Shown here one piece after another: positions 31 to 39,937 of a stretch of DNA of 64,000 bases; the first letter of the stretch is position 1, and every line of letters begins with the position of its first letter. A model generated the notes under the pieces. The model searched no databases. It had not been told where the DNA came from and worked only from the letters and a program-made list of their open reading frames with translations. The position numbers and the translations under genes were made by a program. This DNA comes from Trichodelitschia bisporula. Lineage: Eukaryota. The stretch lies in NCBI GenBank assembly GCA_010356995.1, contig ML996704.1, positions 620,001 through 684,000 on the forward strand, written 5' to 3'.

Positions 31-3000
31 ATCCCACCAGTGTGCTATCCCGTTCCAGAAAGACCATCAAGCTCAAAATCGGGGTCATCTGTGCCCCAAA
101 GTCCCCCGCCTGACCCAGCACTTGCCTCCAGGCCACATACCGATCTCCTCCGAGAATTGCGGAATCTCCTCCCCGACATGATAAATATGATCATCAGCAT
201 CTACGCGCGTTCCGGCAACTTCTCGGGCGAACCTGTTCCTCAGCTTGTGTTCTCCGAGTTCGTCATCCGCTCCGCCAAAATTCTGACTGCAATCAATCTT
301 GCAGGGGGTGTTCTGAGCAAAGATGTTCTCCAGCATGTTGTTAGGGATACCCCTTTAGAGGCATACGTACCCGACCTCTCCATCACTAGGGCAAGCATCC
401 ACCCATCAAGATCATCGATAGCCGACCTTCTTCTTCGGGCTATTCCGGAATCGTCTGAGCAATCGGGAATAACGCCACTGGACCAAGTCCTTGTTCTGGC
501 TGGCATAGCATCTGCGTTTTCCACACTCGGATTCCAGCGCAAGAAGGCAATGCTGATGAAGGAATACCTTTCAGCGCTAACACAGGCGCTAGTACAGGCG
601 AAAAAGCAGAGCGCCGCGGAAGCTGGAATCCACCCCTCTGCTAATCTGACAGCTGCTGCTACCGCACTAGCTGGAGAAGCCGAAAGTGGCATCGAGGAAG
701 TCCTCAATCTATTATGCCAGGTCTATGGTATCCCGGAGTCGAAATGGTCCCGCTCCATCGGCTCAGATGCCTTGCTGCAAGATCCATCCGAACCTTCCGG
801 TAGGCAAGAAGCTACAATCCATAAGCCCGCCCCGCTACCGGAGCAGCTTGTCGGCAACTTCGTCCTACGCTTCTTCGGCAGCATAAATGTGAAGACCGAT
901 GTGTTGAAGACATGCATTGAGCTTTGTGAGGCCCTACCCGATTTTCACGGCATCTTGCACTACACGTCGGCACTGCTGCGCACTGCCGGACCGGGGATTG
1001 CGCCGAGCACGGATACGAGTGACGTTCTCGTCACACTATCTAAGGAGGAACAGATTCTGCTCGCGAACAGAATCACAAAGACCGTTGCCGATGGCAGAGC
1101 TCTGGGTTTGCGCGTCGAAGCTGAATACTGGGACGAGTTCCTTGTCCGAGGAATCTACCTTGTCAGGCCGGAACAACCGCTCGTCTTGCATCCTCACCGG
1201 AGATCAGACGCCGAGATCCAGAAGAAGGCCGAGAAGCGTGGTCCCTTCATCCACAACCCCTTTCTGGAGAAGAGAGAAGCCAAGGCTGAAAATCTGCTGG
1301 TCGCTGGGGATACAAGCGAGTTCGTAGTCTTGCTCCAAAACCCTTACGATTTCGACGTCGACATAGAGCACATCAAGCTCATCGCCGAAGATGAGTGTTT
1401 TGCATCCGCTCAGAACCTAGCTTTGAAGCCGTACCGCACGCAGAGCTTCTCGGTATCGGGTATCGTATCGAAGACAGGAGAGTTATTCATCGATAGCTGT
1501 ACCGTCAAGGTTAAGGGATGCCGTGAGCGGAGCTTTCCCATCTTCAGCGAACCGTGGGCACCGCAGAGCGATATTAAGCTGAAAAGCGTCGGCCTCCTCA
1601 AAGCCCAGCATCCTCCCGCTTCTCGCCCAACCTCTGACGCATCCATTTTTGGGCGTCAGACTCCTGCACGCTCATTCCCAATCCCCTCTACTGTCTCGCT
1701 GGCCGTCATACCAGCGCAGCCCTCCGTCACCGTCTCTAAGATTTCGCTTCCCCAATCAGCTCTTATGCTGCTCGAAGGCGAACAACAAACATTCGCCGTC
1801 TCATTCCAAAATACATCGACGACCCCTGCCGACTTCATATACATCTCATTCCGCGATTCGGTCTCAACCGCAATCCAAGAAGCGCTCACGAACAAAACCC
1901 TGTCACCCGCCGAACTCTACGAGCTCGAATACCAACTCACAAAGAACCCAGCCATCCGCCTCCGCGATAACGCACCCGAATCTATCGCACCGGGCGCGAC
2001 AGAGACGTTTACCTTTGAAGTCGTAGGCAAGCCGGGCCTCATCACAGCAGAAATCCAGCTCGATTACGCGCACCTAAGCACGCCTCACACGAAAAACCGA
2101 GGCAATTTCTTCTCGCGAAGCGTCTCTGTCCCAATCGCCATAACCGTCAACGCAGCCATCCAACTCCACCGGCTCGAAATCGTGCCCGTCGCCAGCGAAT
2201 TCTCCTGGAAGGGGCTGGAGGGGATACACCCCTTTTACCGCTCACCGGTGGAAGAAAGCTGCCTCCTCCTCGTCGATCTGCGCAATTCCTGGCCGGAGCC
2301 CCTGGATGTGTGTCTCCACATCCGCTCTGGCGTCGCCGTCGATAACGAGCGCTCCTCCAGTGCAGAAATCATTGCACCAGGCCACACGGTGCGCTTCGCT
2401 CTGCAGCTTCCCAAAATCCACCTCGCCAATCCCTACGCGCGGATCAATTCGCTCAACGAGCGGCAATTCGTCGTCAGCAGCACTGGCCTCAGCCTCACAG
2501 CGGAGCGCTCCCACCGGGAGGTCTTCTGGTTCCGCGAAGAGCTGCTGCGGATGCTAAGCGGGGACTACATGGTTGAAGGGGAAGCAGGCGCGCCCATCCG
2601 GTCCGGAGAAATCGACTTCCGCAGCGTAGTAAGGCTCAATCCGCGCATGGTGGATGTGCTCCGCCTGCCGGATGTCGCGGTGAAAATGAGCGTGTCTGGC
2701 GATGGAGTCAGGGAGAAGGGCGGCGCGTGGAGCGTCCCGGTCGATGGGTTCGTAACCCTGAGAGTTGAGCTGCGGAATCGGGCAAATGAGGCGATTCATC
2801 CGCTGCTGAGGCTGAGGCCTGCCGTTGCGCATCAGCCGCCTGAGGTGGCGCTGGAGCTGGGGAAGAGGTTTGCTTGGAGTGGGGTTTTGCAAAGTGTTTT
2901 GCCGCCTGTGGAGCCTGGGGGGGTGGAGGTGGTTGAGCTGGGGATTTGTGCGCTTGCTGCTGGGGAGTATGAGATCGGCGCTGTGGTGGAGGAGGTTGTG

Positions 3001-6767: not shown

Positions 6768-9205
6768 CTACTTCATCAAATCCTTCATCGTCGCATACAT
6801 CAGGTCTCGTATGCCTCCCGCTCCATGCTCAGCCAACCAGTCCAGCATCATCACTCGATACTCCCGCCAACCCACTTTGATCCCCTCCCTCTCTAGTCCC
6901 ACCAGCGCCCTCCTAGTTACCGGCCCAGTCAACTTTCCCCTTTCAATGTCTCGGAAAGCACGAGCGCAGAGGCCCGCAAGCACGGGATTAGATCCAAAGC
7001 TCCACGTCGTCGGCACGCTATACTCAGTATCTAGCCGCACGAGATAGGCCTGTAGCGCTGCTACCACAGCGGGATGAACAAGACACCCCATGGCGTTTGC
7101 ATCCGTTGTGACTAGTGCACGCGACCGCCAGAGCAGGTTGCACGCATCCATGAGGTACCCGTTAAAGGTGCCTGTGTCGACTGGGCTGCGCACGCGGGAA
7201 TCGCGCAGTTGCGCTTCGAAGCCAGCTTTGCATCTTGCAAGGATGGCTGAAGTTCGTGAGAGAGCGGCTAGAGAAGACGAAAGGAGAAGGAGGTAGGCGG
7301 TTGGCGGAGGTGGGATGATGATCGGGAAGAGGTGAGGGTTAGCGGGTAGGGCAGCGGCGAGAATGGCAGTGGTACGGTCGTAGAAGGTGAGAACGGCAGA
7401 GGCGGATGACGGGACTTGGAGGAGGGCAGAGAGTGCGAGAGTGGAGATATGGTTTAGAAGGGCGGTTAGGCATGATGCGGTTTGGGTCGGGGAGGTCGGT
7501 GTGATGGCGCCATACCAGCGGGTCACGAGGGCAGCATAGAAGTCGAAGAGCGTCTGAAAGGGAGAATGGGCACCGCTAAGGATGGCGCGTTCGAGAGGTG
7601 AAAGGAGCTTCAAGTAGATTTCTGGTATGTGAGCGGGGCATTGATGTAGGATAGAACTGGGACGTACGTGAGAAGTCTTGCGGCGGGACGTAGCTCAGGA
7701 GATCAAGAATCGAGCCCAAGTTCGATGATCCATCCCAATGAGGGATATATTGGATCAAAAAAGCTTGCACGAGCGGACAGAGAATCTAGGCGCGTGAGTG
7801 TAGCTCGAAAACCGACGTCAAGCCATACCTTTGTAGCTTCAGTATAGCTAATAAGTCCGGAAAGCAAGCTGGGAAGGGATGTTGAAAGACCGAAGCCCTC
7901 TTTAATACTCTGCAACTCCTCATCGAAGTATTGAAGTAGCCAAAACCGTAACCTGTCCGGGACGTCCGAAGACAAACCTAACATCAAGTACTTTTGGAGC
8001 AGTGGATCTGTGAGTCCGGCGACGATCTGAGACGGCGGATCTATTCGCTCGAGGTTCTCGACGAAGTGCTCCGCGCTATCGATCTCCTCGAGAGTGACAG
8101 ATGTCTAGCTGGTTAGCCTCCGGGAAATCTGAGCCGCCAAATGTGCATATATACCTCATTTGCGTGAAACGTGTGGACTTCAGGAATGACAGAGTTTTTA
8201 CTCCTCTTTGTCAAGTCCCTAGCGACACGGAACCCACCTCGCGGTCCACTTCCGAGCTGACCCCAAGATGTGGCATCCTGAATCGCAATAAGCCTCCTCC
8301 GCCACTCTGGATCCGGTTGCTGTTCAAGTCAACTTTGTCAAAAAATATCAAGAGAGCACGAACCGAAAGCGCCGACGCCCGTCCGCTGACGGTGCTTCCG
8401 ACGATGATCTCGGGGTAGTAGTTCTGGTAGACACGCAACAGGCCGATCAACGCAGGCTCATTACCGACCCACCGACAGAGTTCGAGACTGGTTTGTGAGT
8501 GACGTCAAAGATGGCAAGGAGTGACTTACAGGCGATGGATGCGAAATGGTCGGACATGTTTCCGCCTAGCGATGAGTGAGAGTAAATGGCACAACGGCGT
8601 CCTAAGTCATCAGTGATGCCCGATTCTCAAGGAGCGTGCCACTTACCGCAGCGTGAACATGTCGAGCAGGTTGAAGAGCACGCCATACAACCTGCCCAAG
8701 CAGGCTTCATCCTCAAACACATCGTGCGTAGCAATCAGCCACTTCACGAGCGCAGTTTGGGTGGTAGGCGAAGGATTGCGCTTCCCGTTGCCAAGGGCAC
8801 CTACAACGGAGTAGACGATGTCGGACGGAACCTTTTCGGAGGGGAAGAGGTTCTTGATCAAGGCAGTGATGCTCGCCTGATCGAGTTCATTCCGTACGCT
8901 AACAGCAGCGATGACCCGGGCCAGCTCATCTTTCTTTAAGCCCTGCACATTGGCGTGATCGATGATTTCGTTGACGGTCACACCGAGCTTGGTGTCGCGG
9001 AGCTTTGAAGGTGTTTTCGCGGCTATCAATATTAGAAAGAACTGGAGATAGAGTGTCTCGAAGCATAGAAAAGCTACTGACCCGTTTCCAAGGTGCTGAG
9101 GGCGTCTGCCAGCTCGTCCTGCATGGCATCTGCCCGCATTAGCGTTACGCGTATCTTTGGAAGATCTCATGTTTGCATGGTACCGTCATCGAGGTCGTAC
9201 GCCAT
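6768..9205 (-). CDS. mis6: Inner kinetochore protein Mis6/CENP-I (Ctf3), many exons
   Basis: Exon ORFs carry LDQASITALIKNLFP, ALVKWLI, LYGVLFNLLDM, HLLSLIARRKHVRPFR, GLLRVYQNYYPEII and FNGYLMDACNLLWR. The first micro-exon has its ATG at 9205. Confidence 0.88.
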
Positions 9206-13990: not shown

Positions 13991-14748
13991 GAGATAAGGA
14001 AGTCAGCACGACGTTTGTTCACATAGAGCTGTCTTTGCGGTCATGGGATGGCATAATTGTACTACTAGAGCAGTTGTTTATGGCGTTGGGCGCATGTGTC
14101 CTGAAGGTGCCGGTTGTATCTGCGACAAGTTCCGGGCACGCATTTGGAGACATGCGGGCTCGGGCGTTGGGCAACTGACATCGCTGACTCGAATGCGCCG
14201 GAGGATGATCATATTTCGGCAGACGGCAATGAATGAAACTAGAGTTCGGCGTACGGAAAGGGGAATCGGTGGAGCGGGGTTTACCTATGGCATTTGCGGC
14301 ACATCCCTGAGATCTTAAGTCATGTTAATGTTTAAGTTGTTACTGAAACTGACTTTCTTTTTCAAGAAGCTAATGCCAATCGTCGGAGCTCGAAGTTCAG
14401 AAAAGTCCCCTATTTCGCGCTTCACCAATAGGGGCTGAATCATCCTGTTTGCCGCCGAATACGACGGAGACAAAGAGTGGCGGAGGCAGAGCGAATGCGT
14501 TGAGCCTGCATGCGCGAAGTGCCGACCTCTCCAGTTAAGCGCCCACGTCTGCCTTGTGGCCTTGTCCTCCGCACGCAGCGCTCACCAAACCCGCGTCATA
14601 TGTCCAGAATGCATGAGAATGCTTTGGTAGATGGTTGCCATGCGCTATCGTTAGTCAGGTCATGGTTGCAGGTTATCCAGCGTTGGCCACTGACATTCTC
14701 ATTATATTCCCCGTTGCTCGTCATAGTTATAATGAGGGCGAACCCTGG

Positions 14749-14922
14749 GCCAACGTGGTCCAGTGGGACAAACTACAAACTTGGTCACTAGGCAATCCCA
14801 CAGGGCCACACAAACTGGACAGGTCCCGGGTTCGACCCTCGATATACACAATAGAAAACCCCTATCCTTCAGCTGGCCCCTGAAGAAAGGGGGTTTCGTA
14901 GCCCATAATGGGTAAGCTTTTT
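14749..14922 (+). ncRNA. Candidate Pol III unit / tRNA-derived relic (not a canonical tRNA)
   Basis: A-box TGGTCCAGTGG (14756-14766), B-box GGTTCGACCC (14829-14838), downstream hairpins and a T5 run at 14918-14922. The acceptor stem does not pair. Confidence 0.35.
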
Positions 14923-16454
14923 GCTTCCTTATGACCTTTTTTGATGGATGTAACTTGGTTCATTTGGTTATGTCCCAACTTGCTGTGGTGCTTGACGAAG
15001 AAGTCGTTGTTATCTCATCTTTTTGATGTGGCGGTTGGGACAAACACCGCCGCCAATGCTACGCAGGCCTTGCTCCACTGCACACAACTGAACTTCATAC
15101 ATGAAGCATACGCAGGTCTTGCTATTCTGCTTTCCTACATTACCGGGTCTGTTCTCCTATCCTGAGCTGTGTGCTGGTTTTTGGCCATGATGGCTCCCCT
15201 GACGGCTCCCGAAAAGGGGTTAGTCACTTCGATGGCGATGTTTCGCTGCCGCCTAACACCTTTGGTTTAACATCGTCCCAAGATCAAGTTCGCCGTGGAC
15301 GTGATTCTTTTCCAGGCTTCCCTACCCTTTTGTCAGGAGCAACCTATCTAGCGAAGCCTCAATGAAGCGAGGGATTGATTTTACCCGTTGAGCGCAATCA
15401 CCCCGAGCAGGACCTGCAAAGCGATTTCATCTACGATGGTTGCCGACTATACATGTGGGCAAACTGTGGAATCGGAATTTCCACGCCGATCCTCCTCGCC
15501 GGATTACCGCGAGGACAGGCCTCGCTCCATTACCACGTTTGGAGGCCTCCCGAGCCGGACTCCATGTAATATATGTGCCTTATGCCTGATGCTTTTCTCG
15601 ATTTGGTGCACTCAAAAGAATATCTCAGATTTAAGCGATATCTAACTTTGGACTTTATACATGTTCCCAGTATGACCATGAAGGAGGGGAACGAAAGCAT
15701 CTTAACTCGCTTGGGTCAATCCCTTTTTCTTTTGCATTGATCGCAACTTCCCATCTGTCAGTACTTGCCTACTGTCCATGGATGACGCAACGCAGATGTG
15801 GGCAGACGATGTGGGGGACCACAAAATTCTTTTCATCTCGCTCTGTTAATCAAGCATCGCTTTTCTTTTGAGTCTTTCATCATAGTTACTCGGTCAAGTT
15901 ACGAAGACATATTCGTGAAAATGCATTTGTGGTAGCATCGTAGGAGTGTTCGGCCAAAAAGGAACTAGGCTAGCCGTAGCAACCATTATTGGCCAGGCTA
16001 TAATGGAGCATACGGTACTTTAAACTGATCCTTGCATTTAACGCCTGTTAGAGCACCTACCAAATGCCACAATGATGTGAGGGAAGGTCCAGCTAAATGA
16101 GCTCCGAATGTTATCCACCGCACGATGTCAATGCCTCTGTATCCGAGAGAGTCCTGGAGTTAAGGACACCAGTTGCTCCACCATACGGGTAAAGGCACGC
16201 GTTGGCGGGTAAGCCTTCAACCCCCAAACCCCAAACGCGGATAAGGATTTCAACGAGGAAGCGTAAGATATTCAAAGATACAACCAGAAAGAATGGGTAC
16301 CGGATGGATTAGAAAAGCAATTACAGTAAGCATCATGTATTAGCAGTCGCGCGCCTTCACGCAGGTTCCCAGCAAAGTCGTTGGTATCAGAAATAGTTAT
16401 ACATAGTCCGAGACGCCGCAGAATCGTGCCCATGCTGCTTAAACGGTGGAAAAG

Positions 16455-26866: not shown

Positions 26867-28862
26867 ATGCCGCCCAAAAGGTCTCCCTCCCCCCGCCTCA
26901 AGCACCCTCCATTGCCCCACCTCAGAGACCACACCCCGTTCTCTTCAGTCTCCTTGCCCCGCTCCCCCCCCCACTCCTCCCCCAGCCCCAGCCGCCCCGG
27001 AATCCCCATCGAATTCAGCAGCTCCCCCCCCCGCACCGCCCCACCACCCTCCCGTTACGGCCCCCTCCCCCCCCGCCTCCCCACCATGGTCTCCATCCCA
27101 GACTGCTCCCCAGACCGCGCCCCAAAGCGCCCCTACACCGGCACGGACCCGCCGCCCAAGCGCGCCAGAGGCGAGTCAGGCCGCCCAGTTCGCCCCCCAG
27201 AGCGCCTCTTCCCCAAAGCCGGCAAATTTGGGCCCAAGCTGCCGCCGGTCCCGACACAGCCGCTCACGTTTGGGCCGAGTTTGGATCTAAGGTGCAGGCC
27301 TACGGCGCTGATACCGGAGGGGTGGGGGGCTGAGATGGCGCATGGGCGGACGCCTGGGCACCCCGTGCGGGTTAGGGGGTCGAGGGTTGCGCGGCGGGGA
27401 CGTGCGTGGGGGAGTAGGACTGATCCGTTTGTGCCGGATTGGGAGAATATACCGCAGCCGGGGGATGCGGCGGCGTTGGCGGCGTGGAGGCCGTATGCGG
27501 ATGATGTTGCGAAGGGGGAGAGGGTGTTGAGGATTCTGCCGCATGGGGATGATGCGGATAAGTTCTGGTGGCGGCCGGTGAGGTTTCTTGGGACGTCGGA
27601 TGGGACGGGAGTTTTGTGGGTTTGGGTTAAGTATCTTGCTGGGAGGCATGATTGGATTCAGGATGTGAGTTTTGGGGTGCGAGTTTTGTGGTGGGATGGG
27701 TACTGACGGATGCTAGCGCATGGCGGTTAAGGATTCAAGACCGCAACCTTGGAACGACCCGACGGCGTGGATGACGAATACTATGGACGTCCCCATGGAA
27801 GCCAGTATCTTGAAATCGCTCAACCTTTCCGGGCCTTGTGGCAAGTACTTCCCGCAGCTGCGCGGGTTCCGCATCATGCGACACGCGCGATGTGTCCGGA
27901 CGAGCATGGAGTACGCGGCGTACGGGAACCTCCACAACTTCAGAAGATACTTCGTGAACGGGATAGTGCGGGATTACCGATACATGTCTCCCGCGCCGCC
28001 GGATGGCGGCGATTTGTTCCCGACACAGTTCGTATTCCACTTTTTCATGGAACTGAGCCGCGCGTGCATCGCCATGAATAATCTCGGCATCATCCATCGC
28101 GACATCAACCCGTTCAACGTGTACCTCATGGAGGATGCGGAATCGAAGTACGGGTTCCGGGCGGTGCTTGGGGACTTTGGTGCGGCGGTCATCGAGGATG
28201 ACCCTCGTTTCGCCAATCCCCAGCACTTTGTGGGTGTGTATGCCGTCGGATTCCATGCCCCAGAGCAAGCTACCACCGTTCCGCCCCGCGCACCTTGGCG
28301 GTTAACGGACCGGACAAATGTGTGGGGCATAGCGATAACGGTTTACGACATGATCTCTTGCGATACCCGAACCCCACCTCAGGGGCACTGGGGTGGATTG
28401 CCCGAAGGACATCTCGCCCACCAGGTCACTTGTGAAAGAGTACTTGAGCCAGCCGGCCTGTGGTCCAACAGTGCCCAGGCACATCATTACCGACACGTTG
28501 CCATCGCTCTCGTTACGTGCTTGAACGAGTACCCAGGGAACCGGCCCACAAGTACAAAACTTCACCAGGTCCTCCATGACTGGGTGTTGAATCCCAGGAC
28601 CAATGAGCCGGACGACATGGAGACAGAGGGCACCGCTATCAAGCTCCTCAGGTACCACGAACTGTGGCGGATGGGAGAAAGTCTTCAATTGGAGGAGACC
28701 CGGGCAAAAGAGATGGAGCTCTACCGCAGAAGGGTTATACTCTACGTTCAGGAACAGAGGATGAGAGCGGACCACGGGGAACCCCCGTTGGACGAGCCGC
28801 TTCCAGAACCGCCCGCCTCCACTCACAGTGATAATAGTCCGAGGTCATCTCAGGGGTCGTAG
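26867..28862 (+). CDS. Divergent Ser/Thr protein kinase-like protein with Pro-rich N-terminus
   Basis: An intron at 27665-27716 joins ORF 26621-27706 to ORF 27720-28862. Motifs MAVKD, MEYAAYGNL, IHRDINPFN, LGDFG, APEQ and TNVWG. Confidence 0.75.
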
Positions 28863-29219
28863 TCCTCTGGGGACGGGGAGCCCAGTCCATATCCCTCTTG
28901 ATAGGCAGGATATCTGGTCGCTCTCACGGTCCTTTCGTGTCTTGTCCGTCCGCTTGGCCACACGAGTTCTCTGATGGGATGCCGCTTCTTCTCGCCTCTC
29001 TCCCGCACTGAACCTCCGGGAGATCTTCTGCTGTCGCTCTCATTGGAACCAATGGGATGTAGGGAGCAATCTCCCACAATTTCAAGTTGTTTGGTCCTGT
29101 ACTCTCGGTGGACTTAGGCGTGGCTTGTTTGGAGTATCTTGCTTTGGCGTTTTGGCGTTTTGGCGTAGGCCGTGTAGTTGCAATCAATGGAATAGACATT
29201 CGGGCACGAAATCTTTGGA

Positions 29220-31330
29220 TGCAGTTGACGGTTCTTGGTGTAAGAGGAATGGGTGGTTCCATAAATGCCGTTATGCTGACCGCAGGCCAAAGGTCTGGCA
29301 GAGGTGTGTCCCATGGCGCACTGGAAGGAGGCTGTCAGTCGCATTTGTCTTGACATAAGCGCTCTATGACAATGATAGGATGGCGGGTACCACTCCGAAA
29401 AGCTATGGATGCTAGGAGGCCTAGCAGGAAAGTTCGAGTCTCAGAGGCAGAAGGCGACTCGAGGATGGGCAAATGCGGCTGACAGTGGTATCTCTGACCA
29501 GCTGTAGCCTGGGATTCATCTCCCCCCTCCCGCGGCCGGGGAGGGTTTTTTTTGCTTTTTGGCTTCACTCTTTTGAGGGTGATATATGCGGACGATGTGA
29601 AGAGTCGGGTGGGTTGTGGTGGCTCGTAGTTTCTCACTGTGGTGGATGTCAGCCTGCGCGCTTTCCTTGCCTAGCAGCTTCGTCGTTGAATGCAGTTGAA
29701 ATTATTGATATAGCACTGATAGTGATTCCAGAAGTACCTTTATGTTGACCGCTGGACTGAAATCTGGCAGAGATGTGTCCCATGGCGCACTAGGAGGAGG
29801 CTGTCAGTCGCATTTAACCTTGACAAAGGCGCACTATGTCAATGATAGGAGGGAACAAGCCCGTCCGAAATACAAGAATGCTAGATGACATGCCTAGAGA
29901 GAAGTTCGAGTCTCAGAAGCAGAAGGCGACTCGAGGACGGGCAAATGCGGCTGACAGTAGCTCAGGCCGACTGCGACATGGGATTCATCTCTCCCCTCCT
30001 GAGGGAAGGGATTTTTTTGCTCTCTGGCTTCACTCTTTTTGGGATGACATATGCGGACAAGATGAGGAGAGTGAGATGTGTGGTGGTGTATTGCGGCTTC
30101 CTGATGTGTTGGGTCGCGGCTTTCAACTGTGGTAGGTGGCGCCCTGTATGCCGTCCCAACCAGGCAGTCCCGTTGTTGAACTTAGTTGACGTTATCTGGT
30201 GTAAAGAAAGGGTGACTGAATAAATGCCCTTATGTTGAATGTTGGCCAAAAGTCTGGTAGAGATGTGTCTTATGGTGCACTGGGAGGCGGCTGTCAGTCG
30301 CATTTGACCAAGACAAAAGCATACTATGACAATGAACAGGATGGTCAGGCCAATCCGATGAGAATGCTACCATGCTAGCAAACAAAGTTCGAGTCTCAGA
30401 AGCAGAACTGTGACTCGAGGAGCGGCGAATGCGGCTGGCGGTCTCTGACCGGCTGCATCGTGGGATTCATCTCTCCCCTCCTTCGGGAGGGGGCTTTTTT
30501 GCTTTTACTTCACTTTTTGGTGGACGACGTCGCGGGCGAGATGAGGGGACGCTGGTGGGTGGGTGGTGGGTCGCGACTTCCTGCCGTGGTGGTGGTGGGG
30601 GGTGGTACTCTGCGTGCCTGCCTTGTCTAACAGCCTCGCACAAGGGTCAAACGAAAAAGTTATGTCCCCCCATGCCAGCAAAAGCTTGGGAGAGGGGTAA
30701 CATCACTTTTTTAATCGACCCTTGGTCGTTGAATGCAGTTGAAGTGATCTGGTGCAACAGCATAGGCCATTCCATAAGTGCTGTTATGTTGACCCCTGGC
30801 CAAAATGTCCGGCAGAGCTGTCTTCCGTAGCGCACTGGGAGGAGGCTGTCAGTTGGATTTGACCCTGTCAAATCTGACTCGGACTCAAATGGATGGATGG
30901 CGCGGTCAGTGCCAGGTTGTCATCAGACAACCCGCCCATCGAGGCGAGGATACCAAGTTTTCATCAGACAACCGCCCAGCGCGGCGAGGATACAAAGTTG
31001 TCTTCAGACAAACCGCCCAGCTAGGTGAGGATACAGAGTTGTCATCAGACAACCAACCCAGCGAGGCGAGGATACCAAGTTCAAACCGCCGAATGAAAGG
31101 CGCAAGAAACTTACGCAGATAAGGCGGGCAGTGCTCTGACCGGTTGCACCTTGGGATCCATCTCCCCCCTCTTCGGAGGGGGGCTTTTTTGTTCTTTGCT
31201 TCACTCTTTTTTGGAGGATACTTCGCGGGTATGGGGACCGGGGTGGACGTGTGGTGGATCGCGGCTTCCTGCGGCCGTTGGTGTGACGTTGCGTGGCAGT
31301 CTTGTCGGGTGCGGTTTTCCGCACCTGCAC
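29220..31330 (+). repeat. Tandem array of four degenerate ~470-600 bp non-coding units with conserved inverted repeats
   Basis: Shared blocks recur: (T)GCAGTTGA at ~29220/29691/30181/30734, CTGTCAGT at 29332/29801/30291/30846, and GGGATTCATCTC+hairpin+T-run at ~29511/29980/30462/31153. Confidence 0.9.
30916..31078. repeat. ~41-bp minisatellite x4 with internal palindrome GTTGTC-ATCA-GACAAC
   Basis: Units start at 30916, 30957, 30997 and 31038. Consensus GTTGTCATCAGACAACCGCCCAGCGAGGCGAGGATACCAA. Confidence 0.9.
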
Positions 31331-31661
31331 CCTTGCACTGGGCTCGAGCCTCAGCGGTGGCAATGGTTTCCGTGAATTGTGAAACGTAGTCGCGTTGCCA
31401 CAGATAGTCTCTTTTTACATGCTTCGTGGTGCGGAGATCATGAGCTTGAGCGGGAATTGATAATGGCGGTGTTGATACGAATCTGGGGCGGGAGATGAAT
31501 TCGCGCTGAGGTGACAGTGCGGTGTGATATCATGCGGCGAAGCTCAACCGCGAACCACGCTCAGAGAGCGCAAGCAAATGCAAGAGAAACTCACTATACT
31601 CCTATCCAAATAGTGTAACCCAAAATTGGCCGGTTCAACATTTCCCTCTGCGCCACATCCG

Positions 31662-37647: not shown

Positions 37648-39937
37648 GAGGAGTGGACTGAGCTGTTGTGGTACTGCTGGGGATTTATACGTAGTCAGTT
37701 CGCAGCGTACAATGAGATTCGCGGCCGGTGGTAGGGCTGTAGGGCTGATCGGGGTACGGTCTCTGGCCTTCGGCCTATCGTGACGGACTGTAGAGATATG
37801 GGCCTACGACATCTTGCTTGGGGACTAGAACTAGAACCAGCCAGCTCGGCCGCCGTTGACCGAATTGCACGTGTATGTCAAGCAGATGTACTTAAAGCGA
37901 TTACAGTGAAGCTCTATCGAAGTTTACAATTGCTTCCCCGTCTCCGGGTGTCCCGTGACGTGATATCCGTCGTCATTCTTCTGATATTGAGACTGGATTG
38001 TCGCGATGCCATTGTGGCATGAGGGATGGGACTTCATCGCGCGGACACTATCACAAGCTGAAGTTTTATCTTTGGTACCTGGCAGCGGTAAACCGTGTTA
38101 ATACGTAGTCGAGTCTTCGTCTCAGACCGCATCGAGTGGCAATCCTGCCTGAGGCCGCGATGCTGACGAACTCATAAAGGCATGGTAAATCCAAGATCTG
38201 GGTTTTGGGTTCCAGACCCTACAGAGACTGCCCACTTATTTAGGCTACAGTCTTCCATCCTCATAAGTAAAAGCCGGCCCGACCTCAGGACGTCAAAGTA
38301 CGGTGGACGTGTATACGGCAGCTATCAGACGTCTCGTGGCGTCCCTCCCAGCAGAAAAATCACCGCCGCACGCCGCACCAAATCCCGCCCACCAGCGAGC
38401 AACGACTTCCACCAAAACCGGAGGCTAGGTAAACCATCCACACCGCCAATCGCCCGCCAGCGCGGCCCGCACCAAAGACGACAGGTGACGTGCCACCGTC
38501 GCCCACGCGGCGCCCACGCCGTGATACTACGTACGCAGTGCGACGAACACTAGAACTAGAACTAGCGGAGCCCTTCTTCCTGTTCCCAAACATCTAAGAA
38601 AAGCCCGCGTCGTGCTTCCTCATCGGAAGCTAGCCCAGCCGTGCACTGAAACCCGCCTCGAGATCACGCCGACGCGCGCCATTATTCAGGCAGCCAGACC
38701 GGCTCAGCGATGCGCGCTGTGAAACAATGCACAAGTCACGGTATGAATGACACGGAATTACTGCGGTCAAGGCCTGTGGTCAAGGACGGCGGTCAAGGAA
38801 CTGAAGTCAAGGGCTAGGAAACACTGGGCGGATCTGACGCAAGCAGGCGGCCGGACGGGCGGACGGGCGCTTGGAGATAACGTTAAAGAGTTTCTTTGTC
38901 GGCTTTCCTGTTCACCGGCAAGGATAGGTCGGTGTCGGGATGCCCTTTTCTTTGAGAGGCCGAGTGTGCCGCTGGAATGTCGTGGCCGAGTGCGTGTGAC
39001 GATATTATGGTTCCTTTGAGAGGTGCGCAGTCAGCCAGTCGCGCGGCTGTGCAGAAGGTGCAGCGGCCCCTTGCAGATGAGGAGCGGCAGAGGAAGGCGC
39101 CGCCGTCACCAGTAGTGGGGAAGTTGCCAGTTAGGACGCGGACGGAGCGCCCCAAACAAGCCAAACGGTGGGCCGTTCGACCAGGTACCAACTGCTCGCC
39201 ATTGGTTGGAGGGAGATGGCACGGCGGTGCGGCGTCGGTTCTGTCGTGTCATTCGACAATAGTAGGGCCAAGACCGCTATGGACCGGGGTGCGCTCCCCA
39301 GCGTCTGGCTAGCACGGATTGGCTGGTGCGCCCGTTGCCGAGATTGATTGCGTGCATGCGCGTGCTGATTGGTTGGTGAGGGCGTCTTTGAGGATCCAAC
39401 TCCTTTCTGTTGGTTGTCTCTTTGCCCGGGCCTTCTCCTCCTCATTCTCTTCATTCTTCCTCTCTTCCGCCTCTCCCTAACAACACCTCCTCTATCTCTC
39501 CTATCTACTAACCTTCAACTACATCTTCCTCTGTACATAGGAAACTACCGCCGATGTAAAAAGCGTGCGCCTTCAGTCATTCCTTCGGTTCGCACCTTCC
39601 GCTCTCTCTAGCAGTCTCGTACTGCCTTCCGCTCTTTAGCACCTCGCCAGTCACTCCCTCTCGCACGCTTTCTCCCTTCTCCGGATCAACACTCGTTACC
39701 ACGAACCCATCAACCAATTCTCGCACTCTTTAGCTGCCACGGTGCTGCTGCATACTTTCAACACTGCTACGTGCATTTACACCATCTGTTAGTCGAACAG
39801 TACCCACGCAGCGCCAGGACGCGTCGCCCTCGATTCTAGCAGCACAGCAACACCAGAAACACTACACTGAGCAAGTCTCAGTTCTCTTCAGCAGCACTTT
39901 TTACCGAAATCACTTTGCACCAGTAACATCCGGAACA

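Follow-up and report, generated by a model that had tools for sequence, protein, structure and literature searches.

What kind of element is repeated four times in the gap between two genes of the fungus Trichodelitschia bisporula, and does selection act on its fold? The window, i.e., the whole stretch of 64,000 nucleotides that was analysed, carries such an array between a kinase-domain gene and an MFS gene. The initial annotation took it for a candidate structured RNA or element of an undescribed kind, with covariation between copies. As detailed below, the element is strongly folded, locally constrained and without match to known families. The explanation preferred here, to which a probability of about 40% is given, is that the array represents a species-restricted tandem family of structured non-coding RNA genes of ~225-260 nt on the + strand, probably of the RNA polymerase III (Pol III) type.

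Locus and layout of the array

The window is eukaryotic and fungal, a context missed in the initial annotation, with ORFs matching Trs120/TRAPPC9, glycosyl hydrolase 63 (GH63) and GPI ethanolamine-phosphate transferase. The 1022-aa Trs120 ORF shares 100% identity with a Trichodelitschia bisporula protein but only 52-55% with its next relatives (Tothia, Venturia), and the neighbouring genes contain GT..AG introns of 40-52 nt that are skipped in contigs from two runs. A bacterial sRNA or a horizontal transfer has been discarded, since fungal genes with introns lie on both sides. The array occupies the intergenic gap between the kinase-domain gene on the + strand (last exon 27717-28862, stop at 28862), whose 3' end faces it, and the MFS gene on the - strand, whose 3' end faces it from the other side, the two genes being convergent.

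The four diverged tandem units described at the outset have been confirmed as direct repeats by a repeat search, MAFFT and blastn (Table 1). They measure 470-620 bp and are 72-78% identical in their locally aligned parts (blastn) or 63-74% identical in a global alignment, with gaps that are not multiples of three. An inverted repeat lies inside each tandemly duplicated unit. The substitutions among units are of the ordinary type (ts:tv ~1.4), and RIP has been rejected as the cause of the divergence (TpA/ApT 0.59, (CpA+TpG)/(ApC+GpT) 1.36, besides the ts:tv value). Without a RIP signature and with this ratio, the units are old ordinary duplicates. The spacer of U3 includes an additional stretch of ~70 nt (30640-30720), which has its own T6.

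Table 1. Coordinates of the array, its units and their predicted elements within the window.
Feature	Position	Strand	Evidence or remark
Whole array, four tandem units	29205..31340	+	Repeat search, MAFFT, blastn, covariance model
Unit 1 (U1)	29205..29677	+	Predicted RNA ~29300-29553; 265 bits, covariance model
U1 long helix, 5' arm	29300..29347	+	Contains A-box-like TGGCGCACTGG (29314-29324) and 21-nt block GGAGGCTGTCAGTCGCATTTG
21-nt block GGAGGCTGTCAGTCGCATTTG	29327-29347	+	0-2 mismatches across four units
U1 inner hairpin B	29378..29396	+	U-A to G-C swap in U2
U1 inner hairpin C (GCUAG/CUAGC)	29411..29425	+	Loop length varies between units
U1 hairpin D	29431..29464	+	Most conserved block, 4/37 columns vary; 5' side is B-box-like AGTTCGAGTCT (29431-29441)
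U1 long helix, 3' arm	29467..29521	+	Folding, arm alignment
U1 GC hairpin + T8	29525-29545 + 29546-29553	+	Hairpin followed by the T-run
Unit 2 (U2)	29678..30167	+	Predicted RNA ~29769-30018; 290 bits, covariance model
U2 arms + T7	29769-29816, 29939-29990; T7 30012-30018	+	
Unit 3 (U3)	30168..30720	+	Predicted RNA ~30259-30500; 268 bits, covariance model
U3 arms	30259-30306, 30423-30472	+	
U3 UUCG hairpin + T6	30474-30493 + 30495-30500	+	
Unit 4 (U4)	30721..31340	+	Rebuilt or decayed copy; 66 bits, covariance model
U4 arm remnants	30814-30861, 31115-31164	+	
U4 four copies of 40-41-nt tandem repeat	30916..31095	+	Repeat search; interior of U4 replaced
U4 UUCG hairpin + T6	31164-31183 + 31185-31190	+	Hairpin perfect
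Intron of minus-strand transcript within U4	30835..31114	-	GTAAGT ... CTGAC ... CAG; skipped in one RNA-run contig

Fold of the units and its constraint

A stem of 15-16 bp had been described in U1-U3, and its two arms are indeed present: the 5' arm CTGTCAGTCGCATTT starts at 29332, 29801 and 30291, and the 3' arm at 29470, 29942/3 and 30426, the U3 version being CGAATGCGGCTGGCGG. This stem is, however, merely the inner portion of an imperfect helix of 45-50 bp, delimited in U1 by folding, which encloses ~120 nt carrying hairpins B, C and D. Both stems that had been singled out as conserved, GCTAG/CTAGC and TCGAGTC/GACTCGA, are retained, and the swap in the inner hairpin was found as described (GGA-TGG/CCA-c-TCC in U1 at 29378-29396, GGA-GGG/CCC-g-TCC in U2). 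In addition, every unit ends on the + strand with a GC hairpin and a run of T6-T8, a feature absent from the initial annotation; both parts are kept in the four units, though the loops differ and the stem is shifted in U4.

The structure of the units exceeds chance. Minimum free energies (MFE, kcal/mol) on the + and - strands are -112.5/-94.9 for U1, -102.4/-100.2 for U2, -112.3/-77.4 for U3 and -147.1/-153.8 for U4, and the z-scores against dinucleotide shuffles are -2.9, -5.1, -6.7 and -2.7, respectively. The arms alone of U1-U3 reach -55 to -61 kcal/mol, and shuffling the 3' arm weakens this to -28 to -32. In U1 and U3 folding favours the + strand, and the consensus fold, which comprises 72 pairs, amounts to -86.0 kcal/mol on the + strand versus -67.3 on the - strand.

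Selection on an RNA fold of the + strand, as had been proposed, is supported by several observations, including this strand difference. Among U1-U3, 20 of the 98 columns of the long helix are variable versus 101 of 212 in the flanks, so that the helix is 2.4 times less variable (Fisher p 3e-6); the whole interior varies at 44 of 114 columns, and within it hairpin D is almost uniform. When the mismatches between arms are read on the + strand, G-U exceeds A-C in each unit (6:2 in U1, 3:1 in U2 and 12:0 in U3), as counted for transitions only after one arm had been aligned, simply as DNA, with the reverse complement of the other, where the counts are non-independent and some are shared by descent. 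The substitutions themselves were also simulated, by placing the observed number of each unit at random on majority-rule arms in 1000 trials. In U3, whose helix keeps -64.2 kcal/mol after ten substitutions versus a simulated -45.3 +/- 6.2, just one of the 1000 placements was as stable as the observed one. U1 (176/1000) and U2 (108/1000) are each non-significant alone in the same simulation. There is thus moderate evidence, mostly from U3, that the fold is constrained on the + strand; the ancestor used was itself derived from U1-U3, and gene conversion within the array could produce some of the same conservation. The covariation between copies claimed earlier, on the other hand, is thin and not significant: 2 of the 72 pairs are changed on both sides, a number equalled in 225 of 500 shuffles, and three sequences give such a test no power.

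Promoter-like features, transcripts and the fourth unit

Each unit displays elements reminiscent of internal Pol III promoters, which the initial annotation did not mention. The A box, with the consensus TRGCNNAGY followed by GG, is located near the 5' end of such genes (PMC5758916). In U1 an A-box-like sequence, TGGCGCACTGG, lies 14 nt inside the helix base and has a counterpart in every unit, with one mismatch in U1, U2 and U4 and two in U3, in a window whose + strand contains 66 A-box-like sites, such sites being common. The B box consensus, GGTTCGANTCC, includes a critical internal C (PMC3395662). The B-box-like AGTTCGAGTCT of U1-U3 deviates from it at two positions, both terminal, and AAGTTC, with that C, shows no variation among the four units. 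The spacing between both boxes (117-120 nt) is longer than in tRNA genes. All four units also have an oligo-T run of the terminator type at the 3' end, in each case after the GC hairpin, and the helix base is preceded, at a distance of ~25 nt, by an invariant TTATG-TGA block that may be a TATA-like element. Judged from these motifs, the layout of the unit is probably that of a Pol III type-2 gene. The combination of A box, B box and T5 is expected 0.35 times per shuffled window and occurs in three other places of the real one; therefore, this motif test is leaky and suggestive only.

One of these places is a second intergenic element at 14738-14926 (+), with an A-box-like TGGTCCAGTGG (14756), a B-box-like GGTTCGACCCT (14829), two hairpins and two T-runs, T5 and then T6 (fold z -3.1). 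This element has no Rfam match even at E 10 and is not called as a tRNA by ARAGORN; candidates for its identity are a relic derived from a tRNA and a further small gene of the Pol III type. The two other coincidences of A box, B box and T-run are at 7995-8200 (+) and ~700-840 (-).

Transcripts were examined in contigs from two runs, which were taken as RNA because introns are skipped and whose contigs carry no strand, ends or levels. In one of these contigs the kinase exon is continuous with U1, T8 included, as far as 29648, and another joins 30834 to 31115, with the CT..AC ends of a minus-strand intron in U4. Polymerase II-type transcripts thus cross parts of the array on both strands. The longest ATG ORF of the spliced minus-strand contig has at most 56 aa. 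As for a small RNA of the + strand, these contigs neither show nor exclude it; structured RNAs of 40-300 nt are generally missed by standard libraries (PMC8287541).

On the minus strand, CTGAC, a pyrimidine tract and YAG are found in the four units (29305-29345 and homologous places), a look-alike of the fungal branch point and 3' splice site whose use was seen in U4 only. The intron of U4, of ~280 nt, is long compared with the 40-52 nt of other introns at the locus. On the + strand, a G/T-rich tract follows the T-run of each unit (29590-29650, 30060-30140, 30540-30610 and 31230-31290), an example from U3 being GGTGGGTGGGTGGTGGG.

U4 differs from the other units in its interior, now made of the short tandem repeats. 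The upstream block is still there, as are remnants of both arms, the AAGTTC box and the UUCG hairpin with T6; the long helix barely beats shuffles (-36 vs -30.5 +/- 3.3). U4 looks like a decayed or rebuilt copy, while U1-U3 look intact. Read on the minus strand, the 41-nt repeats consist of a terminal stem, UGAUGA ... CUGA and a stem, all inside the intron, with weak similarity to SNORD38 (23.8 and 20.7 bits, for a gathering score of 44). In a run of a different organism, whose match to the GH63 gene is only ~80%, a contig of 162 nt and very low depth is identical to 31102-31263 of U4; this may be carry-over between libraries.

Known families and alternative explanations

No known RNA family had been recognised at this locus by eye, and covariance searches with Rfam 15 likewise gave no match at the gathering score in the whole window; between 28800 and 31800, matches at E up to 10 were all sub-threshold and at chance level. 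Therefore, recognisable SRP, RNase P/MRP, snRNA, snoRNA, Y, vault and tRNA genes and self-cleaving ribozymes are excluded. A tRNA or SINE head was also rejected, as ARAGORN found no tRNA gene. A covariance model built from the units finds the four of them but no further convincing locus in the window, the one extra match being at 38177 (7.9 bits, E 0.11). At the protein level, no transposase or other Pfam domain was found below E 0.1 in the 10 ORFs of the array, nor a homologue of a 100-aa minus-strand ORF, so that both searches are empty of any sign of decayed coding or transposon sequence. Exact-pattern matches, numbering 7 in metagenome contigs, 1 in viral contigs and 46 in prokaryote genomes, were dismissed as chance, because whole-unit blast shows only the 18-20-nt pattern itself to be shared. 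No homologue of the array was found outside the locus in the window or in the metagenome, viral and prokaryote collections searched, and a literature search found no description of such an array.

Two of the identities offered in the initial annotation, a retrozyme-like ribozyme element and a non-autonomous mobile element, are not supported by these results. The array is similar to retrozymes and hammerhead tandem elements in its non-coding tandem units and highly paired RNA, but neither a hammerhead nor another self-cleaving motif appeared in the Rfam searches at any threshold. Moreover, about half of each unit is structured, which means that, unlike in retrozymes, the unit is not a rolling-circle monomer. 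The likeness to MITEs is closer, as each unit includes ~220 bp bounded by long terminal inverted repeats (arms of ~48-55 nt with 32-38 matched positions). However, the flanks of the helix are unlike (GGC | helix | CCC), so there is no target-site duplication at its ends, and no second copy exists in the window. Among 120004 contigs from one genome run, only a source-like one aligns to the array at 80% likeness or more, in a comparison whose filter leaves out some records and which copies below 80% would escape. The inverted repeat of the array also lies within a larger tandem unit, and its mismatches are strand-biased, in contrast with MITEs.

Structured RNA genes must nevertheless be weighed against a functionless relic, in which an intergenic segment with a long inverted repeat, e.g., from a single MITE-like insertion, underwent tandem duplication and has since been eroding slowly, its fold being just a legacy of that repeat. 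The transposon-like appearance of a ~50 bp inverted repeat, the loss of the long helix in U4 and its gain of simple 41-nt repeats, the non-significant covariation and the empty homologue searches all agree with such an origin. It is made unlikely by the reduced variability of the helix relative to its flanks, by the bias of arm mismatches to G-U on the + strand and by the U3 changes that keep the helix (1/1000), as well as by the lack of a target-site duplication at the helix, of another copy in the window or among genome-run contigs at 80% or more, and of a transposase or Pfam match in the 10 ORFs. A close variant of the preferred explanation is that the units are hairpin precursors of small RNAs (milRNA- or siRNA-like), whose 45-50-bp duplex would be diced with the 21-nt block GGAGGCUGUCAGUCGCAUUUG of the 5' arm as guide; Pol III transcription may apply here too, as for the major Neurospora milRNAs. 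The duplex is long and imperfect and exceeds the ~21 bp of a diceable stem, one arm has 0-2 mismatches in the four units while the opposite one drifts via G-U, and fungal hairpin RNAs made by Pol III have a precedent (PMC3547838). Nevertheless, conservation peaks in the apical hairpin D, a part dispensable in a dicing substrate, and no complementary target was found within the window, which leaves this variant a rather small chance.

Two further explanations appeal to the transcripts that cross the array. The units might be cis-acting 3'-end modules, in which the hairpin, the T-run and the G/T-rich tracts pause, cleave or terminate polymerase II and so separate kinase and MFS transcription, U1 being part of a long kinase 3' UTR. 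In fact, the array exactly spans the gap between the convergent 3' ends, the contig that links the kinase exon to U1 stops at 29648, and a G/T-rich tract comes after each T-run. We consider this role very unlikely, since it leaves the conserved apical hairpins and the G-U-preserving helix changes unexplained, termination needs no four diverged copies, and a minus-strand transcript traverses U4. Alternatively, the minus strand may be the functional one, giving a spliced non-coding RNA downstream of the MFS gene with C/D-box-like modules in the U4 intron. Hardly any weight can be given to this idea: the GTAAGT..CTGAC..CAG intron is skipped in an RNA-run contig, the SNORD38-like matches fall inside it (E 0.15 and 1) and CTGAC with the pyrimidine tract and YAG recurs in the four units, but the Rfam scores are far under the gathering score, the modules have just 53 nt, U1-U3 do not preserve the 5' splice site, and folds and mismatch bias point to the + strand.

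If the array is indeed a family of structured RNA genes, each unit would be a separate transcription unit, with transcription starting around the helix base (A29300 in U1) from the A-box-like and B-box-like elements inside the RNA and the conserved upstream TTATG-TGA block, and terminating at the T6-T8 directly 3' of the GC hairpin. The RNA would adopt a panhandle shape, in which the 5' end and the 3' region form the 45-50-bp imperfect helix, topped by a multiloop that bears three or four hairpins, among them the nearly invariant hairpin D, and it would finish in a hairpin with a U tail. By analogy with known systems, such an RNA may serve as a stable scaffold or decoy of the small-RNP type, with protein binding predicted for hairpin D and the long duplex.

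These analogies come from several small RNAs. In vault, Y and adenovirus VA RNAs, the 5' and 3' parts pair around a variable interior and the molecule ends in a U-run. The predicted array RNA would share this closed shape and terminal U-run, but it is about twice as long, with a helix of 45-50 bp and boxes 117-120 nt apart, it has no sequence or Rfam match to them, and its transcription by Pol III is a prediction. Fungi are generally not known to have vault particles. The vault RNA genes of the vtRNA1-1/1-2/1-3 cluster resemble the array as small clustered paralogues with A and B boxes downstream of the start (PMC8287541). In Neurospora crassa, milR-1 and milR-4 are intergenic hairpin RNAs made by Pol III from TATA-like elements or a tRNA-type promoter, milR-1 having neither an A nor a B box (PMC3547838). 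Both are single loci, whereas the array is formed by tandem paralogues in which the apical hairpin is best conserved. A bolder and doubtful, though conceivable, proposal is that the units define a new class of fungal small RNP RNAs, tandem Pol III-made panhandles of ~250 nt that would be the counterpart of vault-, Y- and VA-type RNAs, whose duplex and apical hairpin would bind or sequester proteins, and U4 would be a paralogue rebuilt as a series of four double-hairpin binding modules.

Beyond the housekeeping set, the small structured RNAs of filamentous fungi have hardly been explored, and they escape standard poly(A) RNA-seq. The candidate family described here combines promoter-like boxes, a constrained helix of 45-50 bp and terminators. 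If the preferred explanation is true, it would open the way to Pol III or hairpin RNAs that are specific to lineages of Dothideomycetes; if not, the array would show that old inverted-repeat duplications are able to mimic RNA genes.
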